Assembly (NCBI GenBank): GCA_963693015.1 | Contig: OY843748.1 | Span: 3,651,059 to 3,715,058, forward strand | Source of the DNA: a bacterium | Lineage (GTDB): Bacteria > JAAXHH01 | Reading direction: 5' to 3' | DNA length: 64,000 nt | Part shown: positions 42,126 to 62,369 of the stretch, in pieces | Position numbering within the stretch: position 1 is the first letter of the stretch | Layout: every line of letters starts with the position of its first letter | Position numbers and translations under genes: made by a program | The notes under the pieces: model-generated | What the model saw: only the letters and a program-made list of their open reading frames with translations | Database searches by the model: none | Told to the model about the DNA's origin: nothing

Positions 42126-42291
42126 TTGTAAGGGAAAGCAACCGAGAGACTTAGTTCGCTATAAATGATGAAATTGACTTCGAGAATACAATCTCCTCTT
42201 CGACTGAAGAACATAAGACAAAGAAGAAATGCTCCAGCGCAATCTCAGACTTTTTAAAGTACTATCGGGTCTAAAGTAAAGGGGCAGTCCG

Positions 42292-43470: not shown

Positions 43471-44105
43471 GGAGGAGTGTCAGCATCTATCTTGAAGGCG
43501 GAGGCGATACTTCTGGTACGAGGGCGGCGCTCCGCCATGGAATGGATACGTTCCTTCAGCCGCTGAAGCAAGCGGCCAGGGACAAGGCGCTACGTTGGAA
43601 ACTGGTCGCCTGCGGTACGCGCAGGGAAGCTTACAAAGGGTTTCGAAACGCTATACACGATCTTGAAAGAGATGAGGTCGTCGTCTTACTGGTGGACGCG
43701 GAAGGACCGGTAAACCGGTCGGCGTCCGAACACCTGCGAAACCGCGATGGTTGGGATTTCAGCCTTGCTTCAGACTACGGGGTTCAACCTGACGACGTGG
43801 TACATCTTATGGTGGAGACGATGGAAACCTGGATCGTGGCGGATCCGCACACGTTAGGCGTTTACTACGGCCAGGGATTCAGGACAAATGCACTACCCAA
43901 AGCGCAGAACCTTGAAACCGTTACCAGGATTGATGTCGCGCACAGTTTGAAGGAGGCGACAAGGCAGACCCGGAAAGGATCATATCACAAGATCAAACAC
44001 GCGAGCGACCTTTTGCGGCGGATCGACGTGGAAAAAGTAAAGCGACGCTGTCGTCACTGCCGGTTGCTGTTCGAGAGACTCGGGCCACTGGTCGACGCGG
44101 CCTGA
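43437..44105 (+). CDS. DUF4276-family protein (partner of AAA_21 ATPases)
   Basis: SIYLEGGGD near the N-terminus matches the family (i-hVEG..D signature). The more likely start is the TTG at 43467, overlapping the ATPase stop (TTGA), which suggests translational coupling. Confidence 0.6.
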   Translation: MAHGRDRGKPLRRSVSIYLEGGGDTSGTRAALRHGMDTFLQPLKQAARDKALRWKLVACGTRREAYKGFRNAIHDLERDEVVVLLVDAEGPVNRSASEHLRNRDGWDFSLASDYGVQPDDVVHLMVETMETWIVADPHTLGVYYGQGFRTNALPKAQNLETVTRIDVAHSLKEATRQTRKGSYHKIKHASDLLRRIDVEKVKRRCRHCRLLFERLGPLVDAA

Positions 44106-44435: not shown

Positions 44436-45716
44436 ATGATACGGCCGGGCGCTGAATCGTTGCGGAAGATCGCGGTCATCGGACAGGGAACCGCGGGCTC
44501 CCTGGCGGCCGCCAGTGTAACGCGTCTTCTCTCCGACGACGACCACGAACTGCATCACATCTACGACTCGCGCATTCCGGTCATCGGCGTGGGCGAAGGC
44601 AGTTGGCCGAGTCTGGTACAGGAACTGCACCAGCTGACGAATCTGCCCCACGCAACCGTCCAGCGGCGCTTGAACGGAACCCGCAAGTACGGCGTCGCAT
44701 TCGAGGGATGGGGGTGCCGCAGCCGGGATTTCACCCACTACTTCACGCCGCAACAGGTATCCTATGCCTACCATTTGTCCGCCGACGTGCTGGCGGAGCT
44801 GTTGCGCGAAAGCACGCGCGCGCGCCACGTCGACGCGAACGTGCGCGACATCAAAACCCTGGAGGACGGCGCGCAAGTCGAGTTCGACGGCCGGGCGCCG
44901 GAACGCTACGACCTGGTCTTCGATGCGCGCGGATTCCCGAAAGAACTCCATCCCGACCGGCACATCGACATTTCCTTCATTCCCACCAATACGGCCGTCA
45001 TCCGGCGCTGCCCGGCCGTCATCGCGGAAGAGCGGGACGGGCCGGTCGTGAAGCATACCTACACCCGTGCCGTTGCACGTCCCCACGGCTGGATATTCGT
45101 CATTCCGCTGACGGTGCACACCTCCTACGGGTACATCTTCAACCGCGATATATCCAGCCTCGAAGAAGTCGAATCGGACTTCGACGCCTTCCTTGAAGCC
45201 GATGGCGTGCCGGAATTCGAGCAGCGCGCCGTCATTCCGTTTCCCAACTTCATCCATCGCCGGATCTACGATGGCGCCGTGGCCCGCGTTGGCAACGCGG
45301 CGGCCTTCATGGAGCCCCTGGAGGCCACGGCGATCGTATCTGCCCAGCTGCAAATCGGGATGGTGTTGCAGACGCGTCTGAACCGGCCGGCAGAGCATCT
45401 CGCGCCCGACGCGCCGGTGGTCAACCGGTTTCTCGTCGACAACATGCTCTGCTACGGCCTGTTCGTCGGCTGGCACTATTGCCGTGGCTCCAGGTACGAC
45501 ACCACGTTCTGGCGTCACGCCCGAAACGACGTGTGGCCCCGTCACCGCGACGCGGCAGCGCCCGAGGCGGTGGATTGCGCCGCACTCGGCAAATTCGATG
45601 GGATGTTCGAGCTACTGAATCAACCGGTCATCGACAAATCGGATTGGGACCGGATGTGCGCGGTACCGCTTACCAGCTACGCCCAGGTGTCCCAGGGGCT
45701 GGGCTGCCAAAAGTGA
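44436..45716 (+). CDS. flavin-dependent halogenase (tryptophan-halogenase family, PF04820-like)
   Basis: N-terminal KIAVIGQGTAGSLAA (GxGxxG) and the GWIFVIPL motif (the WxWxIP signature of FADH2-dependent halogenases). Size is about 426 aa. Confidence 0.8.
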   Translation: MIRPGAESLRKIAVIGQGTAGSLAAASVTRLLSDDDHELHHIYDSRIPVIGVGEGSWPSLVQELHQLTNLPHATVQRRLNGTRKYGVAFEGWGCRSRDFTHYFTPQQVSYAYHLSADVLAELLRESTRARHVDANVRDIKTLEDGAQVEFDGRAPERYDLVFDARGFPKELHPDRHIDISFIPTNTAVIRRCPAVIAEERDGPVVKHTYTRAVARPHGWIFVIPLTVHTSYGYIFNRDISSLEEVESDFDAFLEADGVPEFEQRAVIPFPNFIHRRIYDGAVARVGNAAAFMEPLEATAIVSAQLQIGMVLQTRLNRPAEHLAPDAPVVNRFLVDNMLCYGLFVGWHYCRGSRYDTTFWRHARNDVWPRHRDAAAPEAVDCAALGKFDGMFELLNQPVIDKSDWDRMCAVPLTSYAQVSQGLGCQK

Positions 45717-45809: not shown

Positions 45810-46514
45810 GTGTTCAACAATCCATTAAACTCATTCCATGATACCGTTGCCGAAGCGAAGGAAGAGCGGGAACAGCTCGACCGGTTGCTGACGATTTCCA
45901 CGCCGCGGGAGCGTCTGCTCGTCGTCGCGATCGCGGTTGTGCTGTGCGTCACGCTGGCATGGCTTTTCTATGGCAGCGTAGCGCATAGTATTGCGGTGGA
46001 CGGCGTACTGTCCGCATCCGGGCTAGTCGAAGCCCCGTCCGGTCAAGTCGAAGTCCCGGCCGAGCGGGGCGAAAACGGGTCCGTTCAAGTCGAAGCCCCT
46101 GCCGGGCAAGGCGAAAAATCGACCGTTCAAGTCGAAGCCCCTGCCGGGCAAGGCGAAAAATCGACCGTTCAAGTCGAAGCCCCGGCCGAAGGCAGCCGGT
46201 CCGTGCAGGCCCTCGCCTGGATCGACGGCGGTATCGCGCCGCAGATCGAAGCCGGGATGCCGGTGGTGATCGAGCCGGATCCGGCAGATGGAGAACCCGG
46301 CGCGCTGGGCGGAACGGTCCGGGCGATCTCCGCCGTGCCCTTTGCCGGGGCGCTGGCGGCCTTCGAATCCGGGGCGCCGGCGTCCGTGCACCGTATCGAT
46401 ATCGCCCTCGAAGAGAGTCTTGATCCGGATTCCCTTGCGGGCAGGAAATGCCGGATCGTCATCGAGCTGGGCAGGCAATCTCCGATCACGCTGTTTCGAA
46501 TGAGGCGGCCATAG
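45810..46514 (+). CDS. HlyD-like membrane-fusion/secretion protein, unusually short (NHLM bacteriocin-system type)
   Basis: Cytoplasmic N-terminus, a single TM (LLVVAIAVVLCVTLAWLFYG) and a C-terminal beta-rich region. The coiled-coil region is replaced by VQVEAPAGQGEKST repeats. Start is a GTG. Confidence 0.55.
   Translation: MFNNPLNSFHDTVAEAKEEREQLDRLLTISTPRERLLVVAIAVVLCVTLAWLFYGSVAHSIAVDGVLSASGLVEAPSGQVEVPAERGENGSVQVEAPAGQGEKSTVQVEAPAGQGEKSTVQVEAPAEGSRSVQALAWIDGGIAPQIEAGMPVVIEPDPADGEPGALGGTVRAISAVPFAGALAAFESGAPASVHRIDIALEESLDPDSLAGRKCRIVIELGRQSPITLFRMRRP
46039..46206. repeat. 42-bp tandem repeat x4 (two perfect copies) encoding (S)VQVEAPAGQGEKST
   Basis: Seen directly. Perfect copies are 46081-46122 and 46123-46164. 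Confidence 0.85.
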
Positions 46515-46588: not shown

Positions 46589-48802
46589 ATGTCGACGAGC
46601 ACCTCCAGGGGAGCCAGAGGCAAGGCCTCCTCGGATAAATCAGACCAGCGGGTAACCACGCCGATTCTGTTGCAGATGCACGCTTCAGAATGCGGCGCCG
46701 CCTGTCTGGGCATCGTACTGGCCCACTTCGGGAGATGGGTACCGCTTACCGAACTGCGCGAGAAATGCGAGGTGAGCCGGGACGGCAGCAGCGCCGCAAG
46801 CATCCTGCGTGCCTCCAGGCACTATGGGCTCGAATGCAACGGGCTCAGCGTACGCGTCGATCAACTGCACATGCTGCCGTTGCCCCTGATCCTGTTCTGG
46901 CAGTTCAGCCATTTCGTCGTCCTCGAGGGATTCGATGGCCGTAACTTCTACCTCAACGACCCTGCCACGGGACGCCGCCGCCTTTCCGCCGAAGAGTTCG
47001 AGTCGGGCTACAGCGGCATAGCGCTTCGCTTCAAGCGCGGCAAAGACTTCGAGTCCGGTGGCGAGCAGCCCGACTTGTTCCGGCAACTGGGCGCCTTGCT
47101 CGCCGGATCGTGGAGATCGCTTGCCGGGGTGTTTGCCTGCGGACTCATGTTGACGTTGCTGACGCTGATCATTCCCGCGTCGATCGGTGCCTTCGTCGAC
47201 GACGTCATGGAAACGCAAGGGGCCTGGGGCGGTTTGGTGACCGCCCTGCTTGGCGGCGGCGCCCTGGTATACGTCCTTTCCCTGCTCAAGAACCGGTTCC
47301 TCAAGCGGCTCGCGGTCAGGGTGTCGGTGACCGGCTACAGCCGCGGGATGTCGCGGCTGCTGCGGTTGCCGGTGGAGTTTTTCGAACACAGGCTGACGGG
47401 CGATCTGACCGACCGGGTCTCGTCCACCGACCGGATCGCGAAGAACCTGGCGGACCAGTTCCTGGTGCTCATCATCGACGTGGCCATGAGCCTGGTGTTC
47501 CTCGCGGCGATGTTCGCCTTCGACGTCCTGCTCACGCTGATCGTGCTTTTGCTGGCGCTGCTGCACGGTCTGCTGGCCCACTTCCTCAACGCCCTTCGGG
47601 CCGTTCGAAGTCAGGCGATGCGGCGCGAGCAGGGACTGCTGATCGGCCTCGGCATGCAGATGCTGAGTCACGCCGACAATCTGCGCATGACGGGCGCGGA
47701 CGATCGGTTTTTCTCGCGCTGGAGCGGTCAACAGGCCCGCGAACTGCGCGCGCGCCAGCTCTATGCCGAACTGGGCGCCGTCAATACCTCGCTTCCGGGC
47801 CTGGTCGACGCCCTGCGCAGCGCGGCGATACTCGCCATCGGCGGCAGCATGGTCCTGAACGGAGCCATGACCCTGGGGACGCTGGTCGCCTTCTACATCC
47901 TGGCGGAGATGTTCCTGACGCCCGTCGAGCGCTTCCTGGCCTTCGCCGAAAACCGCCAGGCGCTCGAAACCGATCTGCAACGACTCGAGGACGTCTCCAG
48001 GACCGATGAAGATCCCGTTTTCAGCCGCAGAAGCCAGGAGTCGGAATCGGTCCCCACGTTCAACGGCCGGCTCCAACTCGCGGGCCAGCTCGAACTGCGG
48101 AACGTCACCTTCGGTTTCAACAGGAGCCGGCCGCCCCTGATAAAGGACTTCAACCTCGTGATCAAGCCGGGACAGCGGGTCGCCGTGGTCGGTCCCAGCG
48201 GTTCCGGCAAGTCGACGCTGGCGCGGCTGGTTTCGGGGGTCTATCAGCCCTGGTCGGGCGAAATCCTGTTCGACGAGGGCCATCTGCGGGATCAGATCCC
48301 GGAGGAAGTGCTGCGGCAGTCCATATCCATGGTGGATCAGGAGGTCGTGCTCTTCTCCGCGTCCCTGCGCGACAATATCACGCTGTGGAACCCGGCCGTT
48401 CCGGATGAAGTCCTCTTCGCCGCGACGCGGGACGCCCGGATCCACGACGAAATCCTGGTCAGACCGCAGGGATACGCGTCCCTCGTCGAAGAAGGCGGGG
48501 CGAATTTCAGCGGCGGCCAGCGGCAACGGCTGGAAATCGCCCGCGCGCTGGTGGGGAACCCGACGGTGCTCATTCTGGACGAGGCCACCAGCGCCCTCGA
48601 TGCCGCGACGGAGGAATACGTCGACGATGCCCTGCGGCGTCGCGGCGTCACCTGCCTGATCGTGGCGCACCGGCTGAGCACCGTGCGGGACTGCGATGAG
48701 ATCATCGTGCTCGACAAAGGCGCCACCGTGCAACGCGGCACGCACGACGAGTTGATCGCGGATCGGAACGGCGCCTACTACAACCTGGTCAGATCGAACT
48801 GA
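46589..48802 (+). CDS. peptidase-C39 domain ABC exporter (double-glycine leader-cleaving bacteriocin/RiPP transporter)
   Basis: N-terminal QMHASECGAACLGIVL (C39 catalytic Cys) and HFVVLEGFDG (His). Six TM helices, Walker A GPSGSGKST and signature LSGGQRQRLEIARAL. Confidence 0.85.
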   Translation: MSTSTSRGARGKASSDKSDQRVTTPILLQMHASECGAACLGIVLAHFGRWVPLTELREKCEVSRDGSSAASILRASRHYGLECNGLSVRVDQLHMLPLPLILFWQFSHFVVLEGFDGRNFYLNDPATGRRRLSAEEFESGYSGIALRFKRGKDFESGGEQPDLFRQLGALLAGSWRSLAGVFACGLMLTLLTLIIPASIGAFVDDVMETQGAWGGLVTALLGGGALVYVLSLLKNRFLKRLAVRVSVTGYSRGMSRLLRLPVEFFEHRLTGDLTDRVSSTDRIAKNLADQFLVLIIDVAMSLVFLAAMFAFDVLLTLIVLLLALLHGLLAHFLNALRAVRSQAMRREQGLLIGLGMQMLSHADNLRMTGADDRFFSRWSGQQARELRARQLYAELGAVNTSLPGLVDALRSAAILAIGGSMVLNGAMTLGTLVAFYILAEMFLTPVERFLAFAENRQALETDLQRLEDVSRTDEDPVFSRRSQESESVPTFNGRLQLAGQLELRNVTFGFNRSRPPLIKDFNLVIKPGQRVAVVGPSGSGKSTLARLVSGVYQPWSGEILFDEGHLRDQIPEEVLRQSISMVDQEVVLFSASLRDNITLWNPAVPDEVLFAATRDARIHDEILVRPQGYASLVEEGGANFSGGQRQRLEIARALVGNPTVLILDEATSALDAATEEYVDDALRRRGVTCLIVAHRLSTVRDCDEIIVLDKGATVQRGTHDELIADRNGAYYNLVRSN

Positions 48803-48830: not shown

Positions 48831-51797
48831 ATGCCGGAATACACGTCCATAGCCGAACTCGCCGCCCGCTTCGGCGAGTCCGTGCCCTGCGCGGGCAACC
48901 TGCCGGTCGAACTCGTCGACCCGGAGAGCGTCTGGTTCATCGATCAGGGCGCCGTCAATCTGTTCCTGGTCGAATTCAGGGACGGGGTGGAACAGGCCGC
49001 GCCCCAGCATCTGCTGCGCCGGGAATCGGGCTGGTTGCTGCCGGGTGTCGCGCCGGACCGGGGGGACAGCGACGAAGACACCACGCTCAGCATCATCGCC
49101 AAGGGACTGCCGGGCACCCTGCTGAAACGTCTGCCGGCCGCCTTGCTGTCCCGGGTACGTCCGTCGGAACTGGCGGAACAGACCGATACCTGGCTGACCG
49201 CCATTACCGAGACGCTGGCGCGTTACGCGATTCCCCTTCCCCGGCCGGATGCGCTGGCCGAACCCGGCCTGACGCAGACCCTGGCCCCGTGTACGCTATC
49301 CGTACGGCGCGGCGTGGCATGGGTTACCGAACCGCCGTCCGGCGCAAGCCTGTACATGGGTATCGTAGACTACGCGGACAGTGCGGGAGCGAGCGGCCCC
49401 CATGGTCCGGGCGGTCCGCACGGCCCGCACGACGCGGTCGTTCCGCTGACGCGGACGAGCTGGCTCACCTTGACCGACGAGGCGACGCTGACAGGCCAAT
49501 CCACTGAAACGCTGGCGGAGCAAGGCGTGCTGCTGCCCGCCCTCGCCGCTTTTCACGCGGTTGCCTTCACCCTGGAACGCCTGAACCGCCGACTGGTCGT
49601 GGTCGACGCCGTCAATCTCGAACGCGCGCAGATCGCCAGCCGCCGCACGGCCGAGAAAACCGCCCGGCAGCGGCTCTACAATATCTATGACCGTCCGTCC
49701 GGCCGGGATGCCGGCATTGAGGACACGGCACTGACGGATGCCCTGAAGCTCGTCGGCCGCCATGAAGGCATCGATTTCAAGATTCCGGCGCCGTCGGGCC
49801 AGGCCGATGCTCGGGTCGGCCTCGTCGACGTTCTTGAAGCGTCGGGCGTGCGGGCCCGGCGCGTGCGATTCAAAGACGAGGGCAGCTGGTGGCGCGGCGA
49901 CAGCGGAGCGATGCTGGCGTTCCGCGCCGGGGACGGCCAGCCCGTGGCGCTGCTGCCGGGCATGTTCGGACGGTACCGGGAAGTCGACCCGGTCACCAAG
50001 CGGAGCGTCCGGGTTACGGCGGCCCGCCTGGACGGCGCGGGCAAACTGGCGGATGAAGCCTGGACGTTCTATCGGCCCTTGCCGCCGGGGGACGTGAAAC
50101 CGGCGGATCTGCTGAGAATCGCCCTGCACGGCGCGGCTCCGGATCACGTACGGCTGGTCATGGCCGGGCTTCCGGGCGGCCTGATCAAACTGCTGCCGGC
50201 GATCGCCCTCGGGTTCGTTGCCCATCAGGTATCGGCGGGCGGCAGCGCGGGAACGCTCTATGCCGTCGCCGTGGCGGTGGCGGCCTTCGGCCTGCTCGGC
50301 GCATTGCTGCACCTGCTTCAGAGCACGGCGATGATGCGGCTCGAAGGGCGCTCCGGCTCCCGGGTCGAAGCGGCCTTCTGGGACCGTCTCATGCGCCTTC
50401 CCTCAAGCACGCTGCACCGACATCCGGCCGGCGATCTGGCGATGACGGGCATGACGTTCCAGCATCTTCGCGACGGCCTGCAGGGCGTCGTCGCCAACGG
50501 CTTTCTGTCGATCATCTTCCTCCTTCCGGTTTTTGGCGTCATCTTCTTCTACGATGCCGCCCTCGGTGTCATCACCCTCGCCTTCAGCCTGGTTTCGCTG
50601 CTGGTCACCGTCGTACTGGGGTTGCGCCAGATTTCGCCTTACGGGTGGATGATTACCGCGTCGCGTCGCGTGGCCGGCCGGCTGTTCCAGATCGTGGGCG
50701 GCATCTCCAAGCTGCGCATGGATAACGCGGAAGGGTCGGCTTACGCCATCTGGGCGAAGCACTATCGCGAGCAGAAGCGCGCGGAGATCGAACTCGGGGC
50801 GCTGGAAGGCCATTCGCGGGCCCTTGGCGCCGCCCTTCCCTTTCTTGCCGGCGGGGTGCTGCTTTACGCGGTGGCATCGGGGGGAGACCGGAACGTTCCG
50901 GTCGGCGATTTTCTCGTCGTCTACATCGTCTTCATCGTCTTCCAGTCCGCCATCGCCCGGCTCGGCGAGTCCTTCGGCGCCATTGCCGCGATGCTGCCGT
51001 CCTTCCAACAGATGCGCCCGATGCTCTCGGCGGTTCCTGAAACCGGGACCGAGGGCGAGCCGGTCGAATATCTGGGCGGCGACATATTGTTCGACCGCGT
51101 TTCCTTCCGCTACGATCCCGATGGTCCGTTGATACTCGACGACGTCACAATTCGCGCCCATCCCGGCGAATTCGTCGCCATTGCCGGTGAATCCGGCGCC
51201 GGCAAGAGCACCCTGTTCCGGCTCGCCCTCGGTATCGACTGGCCGACCGCCGGCGCGGTGTATTACGACGGACGCGACCTGCGGCACCTGAATCTGAAGC
51301 AGGTGCGCCGCAAGATCGGCGCGGTGCCGCAATCCATCGGCCTTCATCCTCAGGATCTGTGGGACAATCTGGTCAGCCACCACGATGCCGTGACGACCGA
51401 GGAAGTCTGGGCGGCGGCCCGGACCGCCGAAGTCGAAGCCCAGATCAAGGACATGCCCATGGGCATGATGACCATGGTGGGCGCCAGCGGGTCCGTCCTG
51501 TCGGGCGGCGAGAGCCAGCGCATCGCAATCGCCCGCTCGGTGATCGGCAACCCGCGAATCATGCTGTTCGACGAGGCGACGAACTGGCTGGACAACGAAA
51601 ACCAGTCCAGGGTCATGGGGAACATCGCCGGCCTGACTTCCACCCGCCTCGTCATCGCCCACCGCCTGTCCACGCTGGAACAGGCCGACCGCATCTACGT
51701 GCTGCAGGCCGGGCGAGTCGTGCAAAGCGGTTCCTTTACGGAACTTATGGAGGCCGACGGGGTATTCAAAGAGCTGATCAGAAGGCAGATCGCCTGA
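48831..51797 (+). CDS. NHLM-type bacteriocin ABC exporter, ATP-binding/permease protein with long N-terminal domain
   Basis: About 480-aa N-terminal non-transporter region, then 6 TM, Walker A GESGAGKST and signature LSGGESQRIAIARS. Its pairing with a C39-ABC and an HlyD matches the TIGR03794/03796/03797 trio architecture. Confidence 0.7.
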   Translation: MPEYTSIAELAARFGESVPCAGNLPVELVDPESVWFIDQGAVNLFLVEFRDGVEQAAPQHLLRRESGWLLPGVAPDRGDSDEDTTLSIIAKGLPGTLLKRLPAALLSRVRPSELAEQTDTWLTAITETLARYAIPLPRPDALAEPGLTQTLAPCTLSVRRGVAWVTEPPSGASLYMGIVDYADSAGASGPHGPGGPHGPHDAVVPLTRTSWLTLTDEATLTGQSTETLAEQGVLLPALAAFHAVAFTLERLNRRLVVVDAVNLERAQIASRRTAEKTARQRLYNIYDRPSGRDAGIEDTALTDALKLVGRHEGIDFKIPAPSGQADARVGLVDVLEASGVRARRVRFKDEGSWWRGDSGAMLAFRAGDGQPVALLPGMFGRYREVDPVTKRSVRVTAARLDGAGKLADEAWTFYRPLPPGDVKPADLLRIALHGAAPDHVRLVMAGLPGGLIKLLPAIALGFVAHQVSAGGSAGTLYAVAVAVAAFGLLGALLHLLQSTAMMRLEGRSGSRVEAAFWDRLMRLPSSTLHRHPAGDLAMTGMTFQHLRDGLQGVVANGFLSIIFLLPVFGVIFFYDAALGVITLAFSLVSLLVTVVLGLRQISPYGWMITASRRVAGRLFQIVGGISKLRMDNAEGSAYAIWAKHYREQKRAEIELGALEGHSRALGAALPFLAGGVLLYAVASGGDRNVPVGDFLVVYIVFIVFQSAIARLGESFGAIAAMLPSFQQMRPMLSAVPETGTEGEPVEYLGGDILFDRVSFRYDPDGPLILDDVTIRAHPGEFVAIAGESGAGKSTLFRLALGIDWPTAGAVYYDGRDLRHLNLKQVRRKIGAVPQSIGLHPQDLWDNLVSHHDAVTTEEVWAAARTAEVEAQIKDMPMGMMTMVGASGSVLSGGESQRIAIARSVIGNPRIMLFDEATNWLDNENQSRVMGNIAGLTSTRLVIAHRLSTLEQADRIYVLQAGRVVQSGSFTELMEADGVFKELIRRQIA

Positions 51798-51851: not shown

Positions 51852-53168
51852 GTGAAAACGGAGTGGAAAACGATGAAGAAGCCCTTTGACGTGACGGGTT
51901 ACCTGCAGTCGCGTGCCGACGACGACCACGACTTCCGGGAACGTCTTCTCGCCAGGCCCAGGGAAACCATCGAAGAGGAATTCGGCGTGACGATGGCCAG
52001 AGACCATGAGATTCACGTCCACGAAGAATCCTATGCTTCGACGCACGTTGTCCTGCCGCCGCGTAGCAAATACACCAAGGCGGAACAGGAAGAAGCGAGA
52101 ACCGGCGCGGCCTCGCTCGAGTTCCTTCGCAAGACGATGTCCGATCCCGCGCCGCCCCTGCGTCCGCCCGCGGGTGAAGGGGAAAGCGTTTCCGGATTCT
52201 CCGGTACCCCCGAGGCGCTTGCAGACGCGGCCAGAGAGCGCATCCGCCGCGGCCTCGTCTTCCTGGAATCCGCCATAGACGAAAGGGGCGCCTGGCACTG
52301 TATCCGATTCAACGTGGGCGACCCGAATATCCCGCGGCATTTCGAAAGACCCGCCTTCATATCGGCTTACTGCGTCCTTGCCCTGGAGTATTGCCGGGAG
52401 GCGCGGGCCCGGTCCATCTGCGCCGCGGCCAGGGCGTATCTTGCCGACACCATCGAATACCCCGGATTCTGGCGCTATTACCGCCATCTGCCCCAGGATC
52501 TCGACAGCACCACGCTTTCTTCGCTTGTGATTGGAACGCACCCCTGGATCCTGCTGGAGCGAAACGTTCCGCGGATACTGGCGAATCGCGACGGGGAAGG
52601 CCGTTTCATGACCTGGGTGCTGACGGAAGACGAACCCGACGTCGTGTCGCGCTTTCGCATCGAAGCCGACCCCGTCGTCAATGCGAACGTCATCGCCTAT
52701 CTCGGCGACCGCCCGGAAACCAGGGAAGCGCAGCGATGGCTGGAAGCGCTGGTAGCCGAAGGCGATCTCGCGGGGTCGTCCAAATGGTATCCCGACGAGG
52801 TGGCCATCTACTATGCGATCGCCCGCGCCATGGGTCGCGCCGAGCCCGCGCTGAGTGGCCTGCGCCCGGTACTCGCGGACCGTGTCCTCGGCTTGCAGGA
52901 CGACAGTGGAGATTTCGGCAACGTCCTTCAGACCGCCCAGGCCGTGTCGGTGCTCCACGAAGTCGGACGCCTTGACCGCATCGACGCGAAACGCCAGGCG
53001 GAAAGACTCTTATGTTCCCAGCGCGAGGACGGCAGCTGGCCGGAACTCCTCGCCTTTGGAGACCAATCGTTGAAGTGGGGCGCAGTAGGACAGATCGGAC
53101 ACGGATCCGAAGCCGTGACCTCTGCGTTCTGTATCGAAGCGCTCGAGCGCCTCGTCACGTACCTGTGA
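51852..53168 (+). CDS. NHLP-type leader domain fused to prenyltransferase/terpene-cyclase-like alpha/alpha-toroid domain
   Basis: Residues 20-70 (DHDFRERLLARPRETIEEEFGVTMARDHEIHVHEESYASTHVVLPP) align position-by-position with the precursor at 59393-59644 and with the NHLP consensus. The C-terminal 350 aa carry QxxDGSW-like repeats (QREDGSWPE, LQDDSGDFGN, NRDGEGRF). Confidence 0.6.
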   Translation: MKTEWKTMKKPFDVTGYLQSRADDDHDFRERLLARPRETIEEEFGVTMARDHEIHVHEESYASTHVVLPPRSKYTKAEQEEARTGAASLEFLRKTMSDPAPPLRPPAGEGESVSGFSGTPEALADAARERIRRGLVFLESAIDERGAWHCIRFNVGDPNIPRHFERPAFISAYCVLALEYCREARARSICAAARAYLADTIEYPGFWRYYRHLPQDLDSTTLSSLVIGTHPWILLERNVPRILANRDGEGRFMTWVLTEDEPDVVSRFRIEADPVVNANVIAYLGDRPETREAQRWLEALVAEGDLAGSSKWYPDEVAIYYAIARAMGRAEPALSGLRPVLADRVLGLQDDSGDFGNVLQTAQAVSVLHEVGRLDRIDAKRQAERLLCSQREDGSWPELLAFGDQSLKWGAVGQIGHGSEAVTSAFCIEALERLVTYL

Positions 53169-53253: not shown

Positions 53254-55653
53254 ATGTCACAGCACAGTTCTGCGGTAATCACCGGCGCCGATCCGGGCAA
53301 CGCCGACGCCACGCGGCAGATCGAACCGTCCATGCTGACGGCCCTCCCCCATTATCTGCCGCTCGGCGTCTTTCCCTTGATCATCCTCGCCGCGCTGAAT
53401 GGCGGCTGGTGGTTGCTGCCGCCCATCGTCTTCATGAGCCTTTCCTGGTCCTTCGACCGGGTATTCGGCCGCGACGGACGCAACATGGATCCGTGGAGCA
53501 CGCCGAAACACCGGCTGATCTGGCACAATCTCCCGGTCTGGACTTGGGCGTTCCTGTGGCCGCCGACGCTCATTTTCGGCGTCTGGCAGATCCTGGTGGC
53601 GGGTCAGTTCGCTCTGTGGGAAAATGCGCTGCTGGCGATCGTACTGACGATGGAAGCCCAGGCCGTATTCGTCGTCGGCCACGAACTGATCCACCGGCGC
53701 ACGTCCTGGGAACGCCGGATCGGCGAATTCCTGCTTTCCTCCTGTTCCTATCCGCAGTATGCCACGGAACACGTGTATATCCATCACGCGCTGGTCGGCA
53801 CGCCCCACGACGTGGGGTCCGCGCCAAAGGGCGAGAGTTTCTGGAAATACATGCCCAAGGAAATCATCAGCAACCTCGTCAATTCCTGGGAAGTCGCAAA
53901 AGATCGCCTTGGGCGCCGCCGCCTGACCATGTGGCATTACAGCAATCCCTTCTGGCGCTACGGCATCGGGGTCGCCTTCTGGTACGGTCTGGTTTTCTGG
54001 ATGGGCGGCATATGGGCCGTTCCGGTCTTTGCCTTCCTCGGCCTTTCCTGCGTCTTTTCCATGAAGATCAGCAATTACTTCCAGCACTACGGCCTGCGGC
54101 GGGTCCGCCTCGAAAACGGCCGCTGGGAGAAGATCATGCCACGGCATTCCTGGAGCGCGGACTGGAAGTTCAGCAACTGGATGCTGTTCAACGCCCAGCG
54201 CCACGCGGATCATCACGCCGTGGCGTCCCGCCAGTATCCCCTGCTCCAGGTCGGCAGCCACGACGAATCGCCGGAACTGCCGGGCACCTACGCCGATATG
54301 ATGAACATCGTCCTGCGGCCCAAATGCTGGTTCGAGAAGATGGACCCGCTGGTAGACCAGTGGCGGAAGCACTTCTACCCGGATATCGAGGACTGGAGTC
54401 CCTACGACAGCCCGCTTGCCGCCGCGCGGCCCGACGCCTTCGACGCGATCGTCGAGATCTTCGGCGCCGCCCCGCGGCTCGCGAAACGGATCGAGCAGAA
54501 CCCGGAACTGCTGGACAACCTGCAGGACCAGGAATTCCTCGATCTCGACCTGCCGAAGGGATTCGGGGAGGATGAAGAGTTCGAAGCGATCGCGCGGCGC
54601 GGACTTGCGAGAGTGTACTGGACGTACGAAATGGGCGTTCGGGAAATGAAGGACCTGATCGTCGAGCTGCCCGTGGTCGATGCCGGGGAAACCGCTGAGA
54701 TCGTGCGGAACTGGTCGAACGACAGGGCGTTCCAGATCGGCATGCACGTGGTGCGGGGCAACCTGTTGCCGGCGGAAGCGGGGACCGCGCTGTCGAATCT
54801 GGCCGAAGCGTCGATTTCGACCGTGCTTGCCTCCGTGGTTGCGGATTTTACCGAGCGGTACGGATCGCAGAGCGTGGGTGACGTCGCCGCGGTCTTCCTG
54901 GGCGACCTGGCCAGCCGCGAGGCATATCCCGGCATTGCGATGGATATGATGTTTGTCCATGACGGCCGGGAGTCCGGCGAGAACGAACGCATGTGCCGGA
55001 GTTTCCGAAAGGCCCTGGCCGACCTGGCGCAGGACAACCTGTTGTTCGCCCCGATCAGCCCCGATCCGGATTCCATTCCCTCGATGCAGCTTTCGGAACT
55101 GGCCGAGGGTGCTGGTGGTTCGACTTCCGGTGAAGTCCCCGTCCTCACCAGGGCGCGGTGCGTGTTCGAGCCTGACGGTTCCGACATGGGCGGCCGCTTC
55201 GACGAGGCGCGCCGTGAAATCCTGGCCGGGAGCGGCGCGAATGAGTCCCTTGTCGCCTGGTCGAGCGAGCAGCCGGAGGACCGCGCCGAGACGAGCGTGT
55301 CCACCTACGCCCGGGTGCGCGGCGGACTGGACGACGTGGAGCGGACCGCGCGATACCTTCAGCTGGTCCATGGCGGAACCCGCCTCGAAGAACCGGCGCC
55401 GACCGCCGCCGCGGTGTTCGAAGCCGCCGGCGACGAGCCGCTGGCGCAGGCGGCGAAACTGTGGCGGGACCTCCAGGGCGCCATGCGCCTGGTCGGCGAG
55501 GACGGATTTGAACTGGAGGAGGCGGGGCCGAAGGTCAGATCGCTTGTCGCGAAGGCCTGCGGGCAGGACGATTTCGATGGGTTGACGGCGGAGGTCGCCG
55601 AAACCGCGTCCCGCGCGGCCGCCCGGATCGAAGCCCTTGTTGCACGCCCATGA
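53254..55653 (+). CDS. AlkB-type integral-membrane di-iron hydroxylase fused to GlnE-like nucleotidyltransferase/helical domain
   Basis: N-terminal 400 aa: HELIHRR, EHVYIHHALVGTPHD, NYFQHYGL and NAQRHADHHAVASRQY, which match AlkB HELGHK / EHNRGHH / NYIEHYGL / LQRHSDHHA. C-terminal 400 aa: NPELLDNLQD ... VAAVFLGDLASREAYPGIAMDMMFVHDG resembles the GlnE adenylyltransferase core (GKLGGRELxxxSDLDLIF), with the second Asp replaced. RBS AAGGAGG upstream. Confidence 0.7.
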   Translation: MSQHSSAVITGADPGNADATRQIEPSMLTALPHYLPLGVFPLIILAALNGGWWLLPPIVFMSLSWSFDRVFGRDGRNMDPWSTPKHRLIWHNLPVWTWAFLWPPTLIFGVWQILVAGQFALWENALLAIVLTMEAQAVFVVGHELIHRRTSWERRIGEFLLSSCSYPQYATEHVYIHHALVGTPHDVGSAPKGESFWKYMPKEIISNLVNSWEVAKDRLGRRRLTMWHYSNPFWRYGIGVAFWYGLVFWMGGIWAVPVFAFLGLSCVFSMKISNYFQHYGLRRVRLENGRWEKIMPRHSWSADWKFSNWMLFNAQRHADHHAVASRQYPLLQVGSHDESPELPGTYADMMNIVLRPKCWFEKMDPLVDQWRKHFYPDIEDWSPYDSPLAAARPDAFDAIVEIFGAAPRLAKRIEQNPELLDNLQDQEFLDLDLPKGFGEDEEFEAIARRGLARVYWTYEMGVREMKDLIVELPVVDAGETAEIVRNWSNDRAFQIGMHVVRGNLLPAEAGTALSNLAEASISTVLASVVADFTERYGSQSVGDVAAVFLGDLASREAYPGIAMDMMFVHDGRESGENERMCRSFRKALADLAQDNLLFAPISPDPDSIPSMQLSELAEGAGGSTSGEVPVLTRARCVFEPDGSDMGGRFDEARREILAGSGANESLVAWSSEQPEDRAETSVSTYARVRGGLDDVERTARYLQLVHGGTRLEEPAPTAAAVFEAAGDEPLAQAAKLWRDLQGAMRLVGEDGFELEEAGPKVRSLVAKACGQDDFDGLTAEVAETASRAAARIEALVARP

Positions 55654-58139
55654 AGGTACCTGCCGGGCAGACGCCGAATCCCCGGATGCCGGGGCAGACG
55701 AAGACGGATTCTCCACGGGGGATATTAACTAGAACGACGCCTGCGGACCGCGGCAGCGTCGAGCTTCCCGCCCTCGCTCCGCACCTGGTCTGCCACGTCA
55801 TCGGCGAGCAGCAGACGCTCCTGGTTTCCGAGTCCTTCGATACGTTGCTGCACGGCGGCCTGTATTGCGACCTGCTTCCGCTTCTCGACGGCCGGCGTCC
55901 ACTGGCCGGGATCGTAGCCGGTCTGGAGGGCCGCCATACGGCCGCCCGTGTCGAAGCGGCCGTTGCTTCGCTCGCCGACAGGGGCTACGTCGTCTCCGCC
56001 GACTACGGCATGGACCGATCCCGGGCGGCCTACTGGTCGTCCCTCGGCGCGTCGCCCCGATGGGCCGAACAACGGCTGTCGGAATCGTCCGTCGCGGTCG
56101 AAGGCGACGACGGCCGGCTGGCATGTCACCTGGAAGCACGCGGCGCCGGTGTGGCGGCAGACGAGCCCGACTCGAGCGGCGCCGGTATGAAGGCAGACGA
56201 GCCCGACTCCAGCGGTGCGGGTGTGGCGGCAGACGAGCCCGACTCCAGCGGCACCGGTATGAAGGCAGATGAGCCCCGGCTCACGGTAATCGTCTGCGAC
56301 GATTATCTCGAACCACGATTCGCAGCGGTGAATCGGCGCCGTCTCGAGAAGAAAGCGCCGTGGACGCTGGTGCGGCCCCGCGGCATGGAGCCGCTGTTTG
56401 GCCCCGTCTTCCGCGCGGACGCAGACGGGCCCTGCTGGGACTGCCTGGCTACCCGGCTGCGCAGCCATAAGGAGGTGCACGATTTCCTGCGCCACGTTGC
56501 CGGCGAGGATGCCGCATTCAAGCCCTTCGCCGCCGAACCCGCGGTGCTGGAAGCGGTCTACGGCCTGATCGCGGCGGAGATCGTCAAATGGCTGGTGCTG
56601 GATGGGGCGGCCCCGATCCACGATCAGGCGATCTCGATGAATGTGGGCGAATTCGCCGTCTCGAAGCATCCGGTCATGCGCCGGCCGCAATGCCCGGCCT
56701 GCGGCGATGAAGCCTTGCATCGTCCGGATCGGCCGCCGGCGCCCCTGCGCCTGAATCCGAGTCCCAAGCCCCATCGCAACAGCGGCGGCGCGCGGGCCGT
56801 GGCGCCGGAAGCCACTCTGGCGAAATACCGCCACCTGGTGAGCCCGGTCAGCGGCGTCGTAACCTGGCTGAAGCGCACGACCAGTGAGCGCGACGCCTGG
56901 CTCCACGTCCACTGGGCCGGAAGCAATCCGGCCATGCGAAGCCGGAGCCTGAGTTCGCTCAGACGCAGCCTCCGCAGCAAGAGCGCCGGCAAGGGCAGCA
57001 CGGGGGAACAGTCCGAGGTCAGCGCCCTCTGCGAGGCGATCGAGCGTTATTCGGGCGCCCGTTGCGGAGACGAAATCCGCATCCGCCGGCGATTCGTCGA
57101 TTTCGCCGAAGAAGACGAGGCCATCCATCCCAACGACGTGCAGCTGTTCAGCGACCATCAGCTGGACAACGCGGAAAGCATCAACGCGGAAGGCCACCCC
57201 TACAACGTCGTCCCGCCGCGCCTCGATCCCGAAGCCGAGCTCGACTGGACCCCCGCGTGGTCGTTCACGCAGGGCCGGCACCGGTATCTGCCGACCTCGA
57301 TGCTCTACGGCACGTCGGCCGAACAGCGCGGAAGTACCGATCTGATCGCCGATTCCAACGGTTGCGCCGCGGGCAACACCCTGGAAGAGGCCATCCTGCA
57401 GGGGTTCTACGAACTGGTCGAGCGCGATGCCTTCGCCATCTGGTGGTACAACGGACTGCGCGTACCCGGAGTCGATCTTGCCAGCTTCGGCGACGAATTC
57501 CTGGCATCTGCCGAGGATTACTACGGCCGCCATGAGCGGGAAGTGTGGATGCTCGACGTGACTTCCGATCTGGGCATTCCGTCCTTCGTCGCCCTCTCGC
57601 GCAGGCCGGACGGGGATACCGAGGATATCATATACGGCGCCGGCGCCCACGCCGACCCGCGCCTGGCGGCCCTGCGCGCGGTCTGTGAGCTGAACCAGTG
57701 CCTTACCTGGTTGCCGCGTCCCGGGGGGAGCGACGGCCCGCCTGGCCGGCCTGACCGGTCTGGCCGACCCATGATCGACGATCCATTTGCCCTTCGCTGG
57801 TGGCAGACGGCTCGAATCGCCGACTGCTCCTGGCTGGTGCCGGAACCGGAGGCGCCGCTCAGGCAAGGCGCCCGGTATCCGGCGATCGAAACCGAGGACA
57901 CGCGCGACGACGTGGAACGATTCAGGGCACTGGTCGAGGCCCGGGGCATGGAGTTCCTGGTGCTGGACCAGACCCGGCCGGATATCGGCATGCCGGTCGT
58001 GCGGGTCATCGTGCCGGGCATGCGCCATTTCTGGGCGCGGTTCGCCCCCGGGCGCCTGTACGACGTGCCCGTCGCCATGGGGCGCCGCGATCGCCCGCTG
58101 GCCGAAGGCGATCTGAATCCCGCACCGGTAATCGCGTAA
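55650..58139 (+). CDS. fused RRE/E1-like docking domain + YcaO cyclodehydratase (thiazole/oxazole-forming, PatD/TruD/SagCD-type)
   Basis: E1-like PLFGPVFRADADGPCWDCLATRLRSH ... CPACG (tetrathiolate Zn site). YcaO: KYRHLVSPVSGVV ... SALCEAIERYSG ... SNGCAAGNTLEEAILQGFYELVERDA, with a Pro-rich C-terminus. The start overlaps the upstream stop (ATGA). Confidence 0.85.
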   Translation: MKVPAGQTPNPRMPGQTKTDSPRGILTRTTPADRGSVELPALAPHLVCHVIGEQQTLLVSESFDTLLHGGLYCDLLPLLDGRRPLAGIVAGLEGRHTAARVEAAVASLADRGYVVSADYGMDRSRAAYWSSLGASPRWAEQRLSESSVAVEGDDGRLACHLEARGAGVAADEPDSSGAGMKADEPDSSGAGVAADEPDSSGTGMKADEPRLTVIVCDDYLEPRFAAVNRRRLEKKAPWTLVRPRGMEPLFGPVFRADADGPCWDCLATRLRSHKEVHDFLRHVAGEDAAFKPFAAEPAVLEAVYGLIAAEIVKWLVLDGAAPIHDQAISMNVGEFAVSKHPVMRRPQCPACGDEALHRPDRPPAPLRLNPSPKPHRNSGGARAVAPEATLAKYRHLVSPVSGVVTWLKRTTSERDAWLHVHWAGSNPAMRSRSLSSLRRSLRSKSAGKGSTGEQSEVSALCEAIERYSGARCGDEIRIRRRFVDFAEEDEAIHPNDVQLFSDHQLDNAESINAEGHPYNVVPPRLDPEAELDWTPAWSFTQGRHRYLPTSMLYGTSAEQRGSTDLIADSNGCAAGNTLEEAILQGFYELVERDAFAIWWYNGLRVPGVDLASFGDEFLASAEDYYGRHEREVWMLDVTSDLGIPSFVALSRRPDGDTEDIIYGAGAHADPRLAALRAVCELNQCLTWLPRPGGSDGPPGRPDRSGRPMIDDPFALRWWQTARIADCSWLVPEPEAPLRQGARYPAIETEDTRDDVERFRALVEARGMEFLVLDQTRPDIGMPVVRVIVPGMRHFWARFAPGRLYDVPVAMGRRDRPLAEGDLNPAPVIA
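56142..56276. repeat. 36-bp tandem repeat x3.75 encoding acidic GAG(V/M)(A/K)ADEPDSS linker between RRE and E1-like domains
   Basis: Seen directly, alternating VAA/MKA variants. Confidence 0.85.
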
Positions 58140-58148
58140 GGAGGCGGA

Positions 58149-59267
58149 ATGAATATCGACGAAGCCGTTCTGCTTACCCAGGATCGTCTCGCCGAAGAGG
58201 GCGGCACGCTGGCGGAATTGCTCGGGCGCTTCAGGAGCCGGGTTTCACCGAGCCTTATCGGGGAGCGGGAATGGACGCTCATACTGGAACGCGCAAAGCA
58301 ACTCCCCATCTCCATGGGCGCCCAGCCCTTCGGCTTTGAATTGCCGCTCCATGACAGCCGGCCCGTGGCGGATTTCGGCGTCTCGCTGGCGAGCGGGAAC
58401 CGGTCAGGCAATTTCTATGAAGCGCGGGCGCGAACGGACGAGACGGACGAGACCGCAAGTGCGGTCGGTCGGCTGTTCGCGGAAATGGAAGCCCGGGACT
58501 CGCCGCTGCGGGAGATCGTGGGACGCAAGCTGATGCTGGAGTATGACATCGGCTCGGCGCACGGGAACAAGGCGTCGCTGCCTGGGTTGTTCCTGCGGCC
58601 CAACGAACGCACCTTGTCCGGTGGCGGAGGCCTTGCGCGTGACGTCGGGATCGTGGTTGACGCCCTGGTTTCCAGCGTCGGCTGGGAAAGGATCGACGCC
58701 GAACGGAAAAACGTCGAGCGGGTCTACCTGGCGCAGCCCGACGACACGCGCATGGATTCCTTCGGCGTATTCCCGTCCCGGGAACGAACGATCCGCCTGG
58801 CGGTCATGGGCTTCAACGGACAGGAGGCCCTCTGTTCTTATCTGGAAGCCACCGACTGGCCGGGGCGTATTTCGGCTGTCGAGTCCGTGATTTCACGCTT
58901 GAAGGAACGGGCGGATATCGTGAGTACGGGTGTGAATATCGACGTGCGGGCAGACGGACTGGGGCCGACGCTCGGCCTTACGCCCATCGTCAAGCAGAGA
59001 TATACGAATGACAGCCGCTACTGGATCGACGGCCAGACCGATTGGGAGCCTATCCTCGAAGCCCTGAGGTATGAGGACTGCGTCGTACCGGAGAAGCTTG
59101 CGGCGCTCGGCGACTGGGCGTCGAAACCGACCACGCTGTTTGGCCGTACCGGCCCCTTCGTCATGTTACGCGGCATACATCACGTAAAGCTGGTCATATC
59201 CGGAAACAGACTGGAGAAGGTCAAGGCCTATCTCTACATGGTGCTTTCCGGAGCGCTCTCGATTTAA
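58149..59267 (+). CDS. hypothetical protein (372 aa), last gene of the RiPP-like operon
   Basis: Protein-like composition, 10-bp gap to the YcaO gene. No motif recognised by eye. Confidence 0.5.
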   Translation: MNIDEAVLLTQDRLAEEGGTLAELLGRFRSRVSPSLIGEREWTLILERAKQLPISMGAQPFGFELPLHDSRPVADFGVSLASGNRSGNFYEARARTDETDETASAVGRLFAEMEARDSPLREIVGRKLMLEYDIGSAHGNKASLPGLFLRPNERTLSGGGGLARDVGIVVDALVSSVGWERIDAERKNVERVYLAQPDDTRMDSFGVFPSRERTIRLAVMGFNGQEALCSYLEATDWPGRISAVESVISRLKERADIVSTGVNIDVRADGLGPTLGLTPIVKQRYTNDSRYWIDGQTDWEPILEALRYEDCVVPEKLAALGDWASKPTTLFGRTGPFVMLRGIHHVKLVISGNRLEKVKAYLYMVLSGALSI

Positions 59268-59392: not shown

Positions 59393-59644
59393 CTACCAGC
59401 AGCAGCAAAGGCCGGCAGAAACGGCTTCGAGTTGCTCCTCGGTGATATTCGGATCCGGGGGCAACGCGATGTGCACCGTCTGCATATCGCTTTCGTGGAC
59501 CTGGATCGTCATCGATTCAGGCATCGTAATGTCCAACTCCTCGCAAATGACCGACTTCGGATCTGCGATCAATTTCTGCCTGAAATCTGCGTCCAGGGCG
59601 GACTTGTCCACAATCTGCTTCAGCATTTCGTCGCCACTTCTCAT
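59393..59644 (-). CDS. NHLP (nitrile-hydratase leader peptide) family RiPP precursor; predicted core LCCCW
   Basis: MRSGDEMLKQIVDKSALDADFRQKLIADPKSVICEELDITMPESMTIQVHESDMQTVHIALPPDPNITEEQLEAVSAG-LCCCW. The leader matches the NHLP consensus (DxxFRxxLxxDPxxxxxEELxxxxPExxxIxVHExxxxxxHIxLPP ... LExVxAG). Strong RBS AGGGAGG 6 nt upstream, and ATG start. Confidence 0.8.
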   Translation of the reverse strand: MRSGDEMLKQIVDKSALDADFRQKLIADPKSVICEELDITMPESMTIQVHESDMQTVHIALPPDPNITEEQLEAVSAGLCCCW

Positions 59645-59743: not shown

Positions 59744-60400
59744 AGGGATTTAGAGTGATATGCGTATCACGGCCGGTCCTGTTGTCGACGTGGCGCGGCT
59801 TCGACAGTCGTCCCATTCACCCTGTTGAAGGGCGTTCCCGGTTCTTCTTCTTCCTCGACGCGTGGATGACCGAGGCATCCACTACCCTGCCTTTGCGCAC
59901 CGCCAGCCCCGCCTCGGACAGATAGCGCTTCGTCTGCCGGGACAACGCCTGGGCCAGCCCGTGCGCTTCCAGTAAATGGCGGAACTTGCAGATCGTCGTC
60001 TCATCGGGAACGCCGTCTACGTCCACGCCCGCGAAGCGGCGCATCAATTCCACGTCGTAGAGATTGTCCTCCATGGTCGGGTCGCTCAGGCCGTACCATT
60101 GCTGCATGAAGTAGATACGGAGCATCACCTCGGCGCCAATGGGACGCCTGCCGTTGCCGGGCTTCGGATAGTGCTCCAGGATGGGGGCAAGCAGCAGATC
60201 CCAGGGCAATACCGCGTTCATTTCTCCCAGAAAGAGTTCCTTGCGCGTTTTCTTCCCGCGTATGCTCTTCTGATCGGAGGCTATACCGAAAAACTCGTTG
60301 GGTTTCATGACTGAATACGTGACTCAGGATGGTCCGTCGCTCGGGTTGCGTTTACGTCTGCGTTTGTATCGTACGTAAATATAAAGGATTTAGTGTGATC
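59744..60400. mobile_element. IS5-family insertion-sequence remnant flanked by 17-bp imperfect direct repeats
   Basis: agggatttagagtgata (59744-59760) and aaggatttagtgtgatc (60384-60400) bracket a truncated IS5 transposase ORF. Confidence 0.5.
59817..60308 (-). pseudogene. IS5-family transposase, N-terminal 163-aa fragment (DDE domain missing)
   Basis: LPWDLLLAPILEHYPKPGNGRRPIGAEVMLRIYFMQQWYGLSDPTMEDNLYD...TTICKFRHLLEAHGLAQAL closely parallels the IS5 Tnp N-terminus. The ORF stops where the catalytic domain should begin. Confidence 0.7.
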
Positions 60401-62132: not shown

Positions 62133-62369
62133 CTAATCGTCCTCCCGCCAGAACCTGTGGATTGCGAAGGCGGTGAAGCACGCGATGGCCAGGCAGACGC
62201 CCAGGCAGATCACGACCCAGTAGGGCACGCCGAACCATATGGGGACCGGTTCGATTTCAGGAAGGTACCAGGGAATCGACAGGGCGAACAGGCCCGTGTA
62301 CACGGCCCATATCCACAGGGGGAATCGGCGACCGGAGATTGGAGGGTTCATGAAGGACCCGTTGTTCAT
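62133..62369 (-). CDS. DUF3311-like small membrane protein (accessory subunit commonly preceding SSS transporters)
   Basis: 78 aa, two TM (WIWAVYTGLFALSIPWY ... VVICLGVCLAIACFTAFAI), immediately upstream of the SSS gene. An alternative start is at 62351. Confidence 0.55.
   Translation of the reverse strand: MNNGSFMNPPISGRRFPLWIWAVYTGLFALSIPWYLPEIEPVPIWFGVPYWVVICLGVCLAIACFTAFAIHRFWREDD

Follow-up and report, generated by a model that had tools for sequence, protein, structure and literature searches.

A predicted AlkB-type membrane oxygenase carrying a degenerate GlnE-like module, encoded in the core operon of a putative srp proteusin cluster

Contig OY843748.1 of the bacterial assembly GCA_963693015.1 was analysed over a window of 64,000 nucleotides (positions 3,651,059 to 3,715,058), in which a single intact open reading frame (ORF) at 53254..55653 on the plus strand (799 codons, 799 amino acids) almost certainly encodes, within one protein, an AlkB-type membrane oxygenase domain and a module derived from the glutamine-synthetase adenylyltransferase GlnE. 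Sequence, profile and predicted-structure searches were concordant on this fusion architecture. The gene has full-length homologues and is preceded by a strong, canonical ribosome-binding site (AAGGAGGT, 6 nt 5′ of the start codon). Its TGA stop codon overlaps the ATG of the following YcaO gene as ATGA at position 55650, and the two are therefore expected to be translationally coupled. The gene joins an undescribed accessory module to an enzyme of a known family, and it is an uncharacterised core gene of a known cluster type, srp, which directs synthesis of sponge-derived peptides that are made on ribosomes and modified after translation (RiPPs) and are of the proteusin class. As a whole it is best explained, with a probability that we place at roughly 0.45, as a membrane AlkB oxygenase with a dead GlnE module that oxidises the srp peptide core.

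The AlkB-type integral-membrane diiron oxygenase domain spans residues 26-374 (53329..54375, plus strand, as are all parts of the gene given below). Pfam placed FA_desaturase over residues 121-343 (E 1.4e-25), and a phmmer search against the Protein Data Bank (PDB) matched the N-terminal 386 residues to FtAlkB (8f6t_A, 5.8e-46; 8sbb_A, 5.6e-36). His box 1 (HELIH, from residue 143; 53680..53694), His box 2 (EHVYIHH, from 172; 53767..53787), the AlkB-specific NYxxHYGL motif (here NYFQHYGL, from 274; 54073..54096) and His box 3 (QRHADHHA, from 315; 54196..54219) aligned with HELGH, EHNRGHH, NYIEHYGL and QRHSDHHA of AlkB, respectively. Each of the nine histidine ligands (residues 143, 147, 173, 177, 178, 278, 317, 320 and 321) was unchanged throughout 40 srp-type homologues, and every full-length fusion, down to 31% identity, retained the four motifs. 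A preliminary description of this DNA, made from the sequence alone, had reported His motifs in AlkB order and spacing, and the alignments to 8f6t and 8sbb bear this out. Judged from its nine histidines, the domain is a catalytically intact diiron oxygenase.

Hydropathy analysis revealed three hydrophobic hairpins, corresponding to six transmembrane (TM) helices, with none past residue 280. An AlphaFold2 (AF2) model gave the same topology (helices at residues 27-49, 51-71, 85-114, 121-146, 232-251 and 255-278), and Foldseek comparison of the model with AlkB structures returned template modelling scores of 0.69-0.78. By analogy with AlkB, the active site would face the cytoplasmic side of the membrane.

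A conserved linker (YPDIEDWSPYDS..., 54376..54429), in which W381 is invariant in all fusions, leads into a C-terminal module of about 420 residues that, from its sequence and modelled structure, is predicted to be cytoplasmic and descended from the adenylyl-transferase (AT) half of GlnE. Three parts were delimited: a helical N-subdomain (residues 393-536, 54430..54861) marked by its conservation and aligning to GlnE APSLAEWL...ARRGLVRLFY, a degenerate nucleotidyltransferase (NTase) alpha/beta core (residues 537-640, 54862..55173) placed by alignment to 3k7d and GlnE proteins, and a C-terminal helical bundle (residues 641-799, 55174..55650) identified by phmmer, AF2 and Foldseek. The Pfam GlnE family matched residues 398-576 at 26.5 bits (gathering cut-off 24), and the NCBIfam GlnE model PRK14108 matched through its AT half (E 1.5e-24), its score of 85.8 bits lying far under the equivalog cut-off of 724. 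The C-terminal half alone matched the adenylylation domain of E. coli GlnE (3k7d) weakly (E 0.017). When residues 385-799 were searched with phmmer against 1.8 billion representative proteins, 566 proteins were recovered at E<=1e-3, among them a bona fide GlnE of 1013 aa (P0156; Pfam GlnE 2.4e-108 plus GlnD_UR_UTase), found at 3.8e-45 and aligned over its residues 568-1003, which comprise the AT half and helical bundle. BLASTP of the module against this alphaproteobacterial-type GlnE gave 30% identity over 453 aa (E 1.3e-57).

The AF2 model built from an alignment including divergent fusions reached a predicted local distance difference test (pLDDT) score of 85.7 and a predicted template modelling score of 0.82; with 40 close homologues alone, pLDDT was 49. 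Foldseek comparison of this model with the PDB yielded exactly six significant matches: 8f6t (E 2e-13) and 8sbb (E 4e-11), both AlkB; two chains of 3k7d, the GlnE AT domain (E 1.4e-9); 1v4a, the GlnE adenylyl-removing (AR) domain (E 5e-8); and 6yx5, the GlnE-like AMPylase DrrA (E 7e-4). The modelled fold of the module is of the GlnE/GlnD type, as had been proposed for the C-terminal half, and the sequence is read as one AT-like module in place of the tandem AR and AT modules of GlnE (~950 aa).

The NTase core appears to have lost its catalytic site. Both in the HMMER alignment to 3k7d and in a MAFFT alignment with GlnE proteins, the GlnE segments GKLG[GS]xE and SSDLDLIFLHD were aligned with GDLASRE and GIAMDMMFVHD of the fusion, within the stretch GDLASRE...GIAMDMMFVHD (54901-54963). 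The first catalytic aspartate is replaced by Ala562 and the second is kept as Asp564, such that DxD reads AxD. The motif had been called degenerate in the preliminary description, correctly, but with the first aspartate retained and the second substituted, which is the reverse of what the alignments show. Across 27 fusions the column of the first aspartate held A, E, G, S, R, T, Q or D (GlnE proteins have SDLDL), the column of the second held D or E in almost all, and the serine of the G-S motif was not conserved. The D-M-R-L-R-P segment of GlnE was replaced by unrelated sequence (PISPDPDSIP) in every fusion. Read from these alignments, the catalytic signature of GlnE (G-S...D-x-D plus DxRLRP) is missing from the module.

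Conservation was unevenly distributed along the protein. When members of the srp-type family were compared with the window protein, the AlkB core was 83% identical and the helical N-subdomain (393-536) 82%, against 62% in the NTase core and 63% in the C-terminal helices. Because its would-be catalytic centre is the least constrained part, the module is most simply regarded as a pseudoenzyme, and it is very probably non-catalytic. The surface under selection would be the helical subdomain next to AlkB, and the likeliest role of the module is in docking, dimerisation or regulation.

The alternative, that the GlnE-like domain is a working NTase or kinase acting on the peptide or on a hydroxyl installed by AlkB, is highly improbable. 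Asp564 and the [HY]-D that follows it are kept, the fold is NTase-like, and a distant member of the family (P0141) has D-x-E. Set against this, even close relatives differ at the first carboxylate (A, E, G, S), other sequence stands in place of the G-S motif, no region of the protein evolves faster than the catalytic core, and neither the first carboxylate nor G-S nor DxRLRP is conserved in any branch of the fusions. The earlier suggestion that the second domain adenylylates or phosphorylates the product thus finds little favour.

The fusion gene lies in a cluster that we assign with high confidence to the published srp family, because an LCCCW core with an ITEEQL leader, a YcaO, a halogenase and ABC exporters of the nitrile hydratase leader peptide (NHLP) type match the published description. 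The NHLP precursor, SrpE-like by sequence and literature, is an 83-aa protein encoded at 59393..59644 on the minus strand; its leader has the ITEEQL motif, and it ends ...ITEEQLEAVSAG-LCCCW, the C-terminus reading ...ITEEQLEAVSAGLCCCW. The SrpC-like YcaO cyclodehydratase (55650..58139, plus strand) combines winged helix-turn-helix, E1-like/RiPP recognition element and YcaO domains (Pfam YcaO 1.9e-92; TIGR03604, TIGR03882). The flavin-dependent Trp halogenase (44436..45716, plus strand; Pfam Trp_halogenase 4.8e-46) resembles the brominase SrpI, its bromide specificity being predicted, and is 74-87% identical in syntenic loci. Two exporters are encoded on the plus strand between the halogenase and the core operon: an NHLP C39 peptidase ABC exporter (46589-48802; TIGR03796 8e-258) and a second NHLP ABC exporter, ABC2 (48831-51797; TIGR03797 3e-195). 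What had been described as a RiPP-like operon is therefore indeed a RiPP operon, though a member of the published srp proteusin clusters and not a new system.

The core operon reads, in order, a 438-aa protein, the fusion, YcaO and a 372-aa protein. In the scheme A-B-C-D-E-F-G-H-I, C is YcaO, E the precursor and I the halogenase; since these fall at positions 3, 5 and 9, the fusion gene would be 'srpB', the second gene of an A-B-C-D core operon. The gene letters were reportedly defined by Nguyen et al. in JACS in 2021. In srp, the three cysteines of the LCCCW core are converted to thiazolines by the YcaO SrpC and the terminal Trp is brominated by SrpI (bioRxiv 10.1101/2023.06.09.544420; PMC10286304), and the clusters are spread over phyla in sponge microbiomes (bioRxiv 10.1101/2023.06.09.544420; PMC10286304; PMC9426513). 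A 2025 survey notes that srp clusters still have 'several genes of unknown function' (PMC11832590). In the srp papers covered, which are those after the founding 2021 paper, only SrpC, SrpE and SrpI are characterised, and the supplement of PMC10858898 gives no annotation for the fusion gene.

Full-length fusions were found in at least 929 clusters at 90% identity in public data, under source names reading only 'hypothetical protein' or 'fatty acid desaturase'. The best 120 relatives measured 787-815 aa and were at least 71% identical; relatives came from metagenome-assembled genomes (MAGs) labelled Gemmatimonadota, Acidobacteriia and Gamma-, Delta- and Alphaproteobacteria. The co-occurrence of AlkB and GlnE domains in one protein is thus recurrent, and the fusion, previously called unusual, is not rare. 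Literature searches yielded no description of an AlkB-GlnE-like fusion, nor of an AlkB enzyme in a RiPP/YcaO or proteusin setting. In a 2014 survey of AlkB architectures, rubredoxin and ferredoxin/reductase are the only fusion partners listed (PMC4021335). As far as found in the literature, the family of GlnE-like modules is likewise undescribed.

Gene order was identical in five genome and metagenome loci at 72-87% identity. A metagenome pattern scan, built on a three-sequence linker alignment and applied to a biased sample of largely sponge metagenomes, added 33 further full fusions (48-83% identity), 24 of which had YcaO in the fetched stretch. Among the nine others, L022, L027 and L042 have NHLP-type ABC exporter genes, the short contigs L035, L040 and L049 have an SrpA-like gene, L050 shows the arrangement of fusion and resistance-nodulation-division (RND) pump seen in L023/L025, and L026 and L046 are contigs of <=4.3 kb. 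Fusions of at least 47% identity share a setting with YcaO, the orphan 372-aa protein and xCCCx-type cores, and synteny reaches 40% identity, at which the fusion of L017 again lies in an NHLP/YcaO cluster.

Three layouts were distinguished. The first, A-B-C-D-E, may include or lack the halogenase. The second, B-C-D, may be accompanied by methyltransferases, an MpaB/Lcp-type oxygenase or an FAD oxidase. In the third, C-D-E-F-G-H-B, an RND pump follows. Constant across these variants are the fusion, YcaO, the 372-aa protein and a core that is very short and has neighbouring cysteines (LCCCW, LCCCG, LSCCL, MCCCGI, RCCC and RCCCWA were seen); the halogenase, the 438-aa protein, the methyltransferases, core residue 1 and the Trp are variable. 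In L007/L008, L015/L016 and L028, a variant NHLP/YcaO cluster with an RCCC core and no halogenase carries the gene of a CMAS-family methyltransferase immediately behind that of the fusion (the two overlap in L015/L016), together with an MpaB/Lcp-type oxygenase and two more methyltransferases. A charge pairing between a polar residue of TM4 (E134 or R136) and core residue 1 was also considered, and was dropped because the pattern was inconsistent.

This distribution bears on the possibility that the gene is a passenger or decaying remnant, or the fusion an artefact of assembly or annotation. Such an explanation could draw on the lack of a nearby electron donor and of an assigned function. It is hardly credible, and effectively refuted, since at least 929 sequence clusters, drawn from numerous assemblies and phyla, have the ORF intact at ~798 aa, the gene is coupled to YcaO, the catalytic histidines are invariant and synteny extends down to 40% identity.

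Fusions at 31-41% identity, all with FA_desaturase and the GlnE-like module, were found in non-RiPP contexts: between rpsF-rpsR-rplI and dnaB (L009); beside a sulfotransferase (L006); beside a metallophosphoesterase, a GT4 glycosyltransferase and a GDSL lipase (L013); beside a PAF-AH-like lipase, a major facilitator superfamily (MFS) transporter and an RND pump (L010); and near a carotenoid-oxygenase-like gene (L014). Judged from these relatives, the fusion architecture is older than its RiPP use, and the second domain is not confined to RiPP clusters. The same degenerate GlnE-like module also terminates the AcrB-type RND pumps P0176 and P0183, for which no description was found in the literature. 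RND pumps of ~1500 aa with this C-terminal module are encoded at 8001-12578 of L012, adjoining an MpaB/Lcp oxygenase and two squalene/phytoene synthase genes, and at 8819-13048 of L010, 5 kb from the AlkB-GlnE-like gene. Since it is found on RND pumps as well, the module seems to be a cytoplasmic add-on of general use to membrane proteins handling hydrophobic molecules; its sequence distribution does not suggest that it arose within RiPP systems to bind leader peptides.

We favour a model in which YcaO would convert the cysteines of the short core (LCCCW here) to thiazolines, and the AlkB domain, using O2 and electrons from a donor encoded elsewhere, would oxidise the hydrophobic core, still bound to its leader, by two electrons at the membrane's cytoplasmic face. 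The oxidation would be either thiazoline-to-thiazole desaturation or aliphatic C-H hydroxylation. Leader removal and product export would follow, both carried out by peptidase-containing ABC transporters (PCATs). No SagB/MprD-type FMN azoline oxidase was seen in the window cluster or in the variants inspected, which leaves the fusion as the only universally conserved oxidoreductase. Because such an oxidase is absent here (the related mpr cluster has one) and adjacent cysteines are the only constant feature of the core, the peptide core itself is tentatively ranked first as substrate, through thiazoline desaturation or core hydroxylation. The genomic context argues for a substrate other than n-alkanes, and the chemistry proposed in the preliminary description (hydroxylation or desaturation of the peptide or of a lipid or prenyl tail) would be plausible.

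Several points weigh against oxidation of the peptide. To our knowledge, all characterised AlkB-family enzymes oxidise hydrocarbon or lipid chains, never peptides. Motif scans of the window and of loci L001-L017 found no rubredoxin or 4Fe-4S motif; the fused or nearby electron-transfer partner characteristic of the AlkB family is lacking from these sequences, and the electrons must therefore come from a donor encoded elsewhere in the genome. The distant, non-RiPP fusions lie in lipid-type contexts, which points to an ancestral lipid substrate, and the CMAS-family methyltransferase and MpaB/Lcp-type oxygenase found beside the fusion in RiPP variants are lipid/isoprenoid-type enzymes. The azoline oxidase, or a lipid transferase, might instead be the 372-aa protein. 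The substrate of SrpI is described as a tri-thiazoline, not a thiazole (PMC10286304). Finally, the literature covered, which was that outside the founding 2021 srp paper, yielded no experiment or publication on the fusion gene.

Some of these points are shared by an alternative in which the AlkB domain oxidises a hydrocarbon-like chain. This could be a lipid or prenyl group on the peptide, attached for instance by the 372-aa protein or by the prenyltransferase-like 438-aa protein, or a membrane lipid that is oxidised to provide a handle or to alter the membrane for export or self-protection. Such reactions are known AlkB-family chemistry, and the neighbours of the fusion in L006, L013 and L010 fit a pattern of 'hydroxylate, then decorate or export'. 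The CMAS-family methyltransferase and MpaB/Lcp oxygenase of the RiPP variants, and the RND pump directly 3′ of the fusion in some RiPP clusters, point the same way. While the squalene-hopene-cyclase/RabGGTase-beta-like repeats of the 438-aa protein would also fit, their similarity is weak (E 0.007-0.03) and the protein is missing from many fusion clusters. Moreover, the constant core of the clusters contains no recognisable acyl-/prenyl-transferase or lipid-supply gene, and the published heterologous products carry no lipid (PMC10286304), though the fusion gene was not reported as included. Taken jointly, the variants of this alternative appear somewhat unlikely.

Returning to oxidation of the peptide core, the fusion might be the first membrane-bound AlkB-type RiPP tailoring enzyme, catalysing thiazoline aromatisation or core hydroxylation, and its pseudo-NTase a new cytoplasmic adaptor module; in this combined form the proposal is possible, if somewhat unlikely. 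Such an adaptor would couple membrane enzymes and RND pumps to partners, for example through pairing of two such modules in a manner mimicking GlnE AR/AT.

The two other core genes were less readily interpreted. The 438-aa protein (51852..53168, plus strand), which would be 'SrpA', combines terpene-cyclase/prenyltransferase-like repeats with an NHLP-leader-like N-terminus, homologous to NHLP leaders at 48% identity to a precursor in L017. An enzyme-like protein with its own 'leader' is odd, and it was seen only in the classic srp layout. The orphan 372-aa protein (58149..59267, plus strand), which would be 'SrpD' by synteny, had no Pfam, NCBIfam or PDB match, either as a single sequence or as a profile. 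It has at least 876 relatives, all named 'hypothetical'. No gene shows closer linkage to YcaO and the fusion, and variant clusters often contain two copies. An assignment as an ABBA-type prenyltransferase was considered on strand-like sequence patterns alone and is not claimed. Upstream, between the halogenase and the exporters, a short HlyD-like protein of 234 aa (45810..46514, plus strand) resembles the NHLP HlyD model (TIGR03794) over no more than its N-terminal ~55 residues and carries internal tandem VQVEAPAGQGEKST-like repeats.

Directly upstream of the srp cluster, a low-GC island (37836-44105; ~50-56% versus 63%) encodes a 1429-aa Avs2-type STAND NTPase (PADLOC E=0) and a candidate HEC-01 defence pair, made up of an AAA_21 ATPase (42292-43470) together with a DUF4276 protein (43437-44105). 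Directly downstream of the precursor gene lies a 163-aa DUF772 transposase fragment (59817-60308, minus strand). The transposase fragment and the defence island suggest that the cluster sits in a mobile or variable region, which fits the spread of srp across phyla. NHL-repeat beta-propeller proteins flank the region on the minus strand, a 706-aa teneurin-like NHL protein at 34022-36142 and a 282-aa protein at 62366-63214.

The reaction of the fusion matters because, as the only universally conserved oxidoreductase of the core, it probably decides whether the final structure is thiazoline or thiazole, whether it is hydroxylated and whether it is lipidated. If AlkB acts on the peptide, a new enzyme class would be added to RiPP biochemistry; if it acts on lipid, srp peptides would probably be lipopeptides. 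The srp clusters occur in many bacterial phyla of marine sponges and are reported to be strongly transcribed, with only three of their nine genes studied. Tailoring by the AlkB domain, if true, would act on a peptide family that ranks among the most widespread and most highly expressed in sponge microbiomes. A dead GlnE half carried by both AlkB enzymes and RND pumps would also show cleanly how membrane proteins can recruit a pseudoenzyme.

Compared with known systems, the N-terminal half shares with FtAlkB (8F6T/8SBB) and the Pseudomonas putida GPo1-type AlkB the six-TM fold, the nine-histidine site, the order and spacing of the four motifs and the conserved ...WF..MDPLV C-terminal helix, although identity to FtAlkB is only ~28%. 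In contrast to AlkB, it has no alkG/alkT/alkJ/alkH neighbourhood and sits in a RiPP operon. Natural AlkB-rubredoxin fusions likewise carry their extra domain at the cytoplasmic C-terminus (PMC4021335); here the added domain would be a GlnE-derived pseudo-NTase instead of an electron carrier. The module has the same three-part build as the AT half of GlnE (3K7D), with helical N-subdomain, NTase core and helical bundle, but is single, tethered to a membrane enzyme and has no link to nitrogen regulation. The AcrB-type RND pumps P0176, P0183 and that of L010 also bear the degenerate module at the cytoplasmic C-terminus of a membrane protein, which in their case is a transporter and in the fusion an oxygenase. 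Among RiPP systems, the related mpr proteusin cluster has the FMN azoline dehydrogenase MprD, which srp clusters lack. With the soluble flavoproteins SagB, McbC and MprD, the fusion, as a membrane diiron enzyme of other fold, cofactor and location, would share only the proposed two-electron oxidation of YcaO-made thiazolines, a hypothetical functional analogy. The window agrees in structure with the srp clusters themselves, in its NHLP precursor with LCCCW core, SrpC YcaO, SrpI brominase, PCAT exporters and the gene order of sponge-symbiont MAGs.

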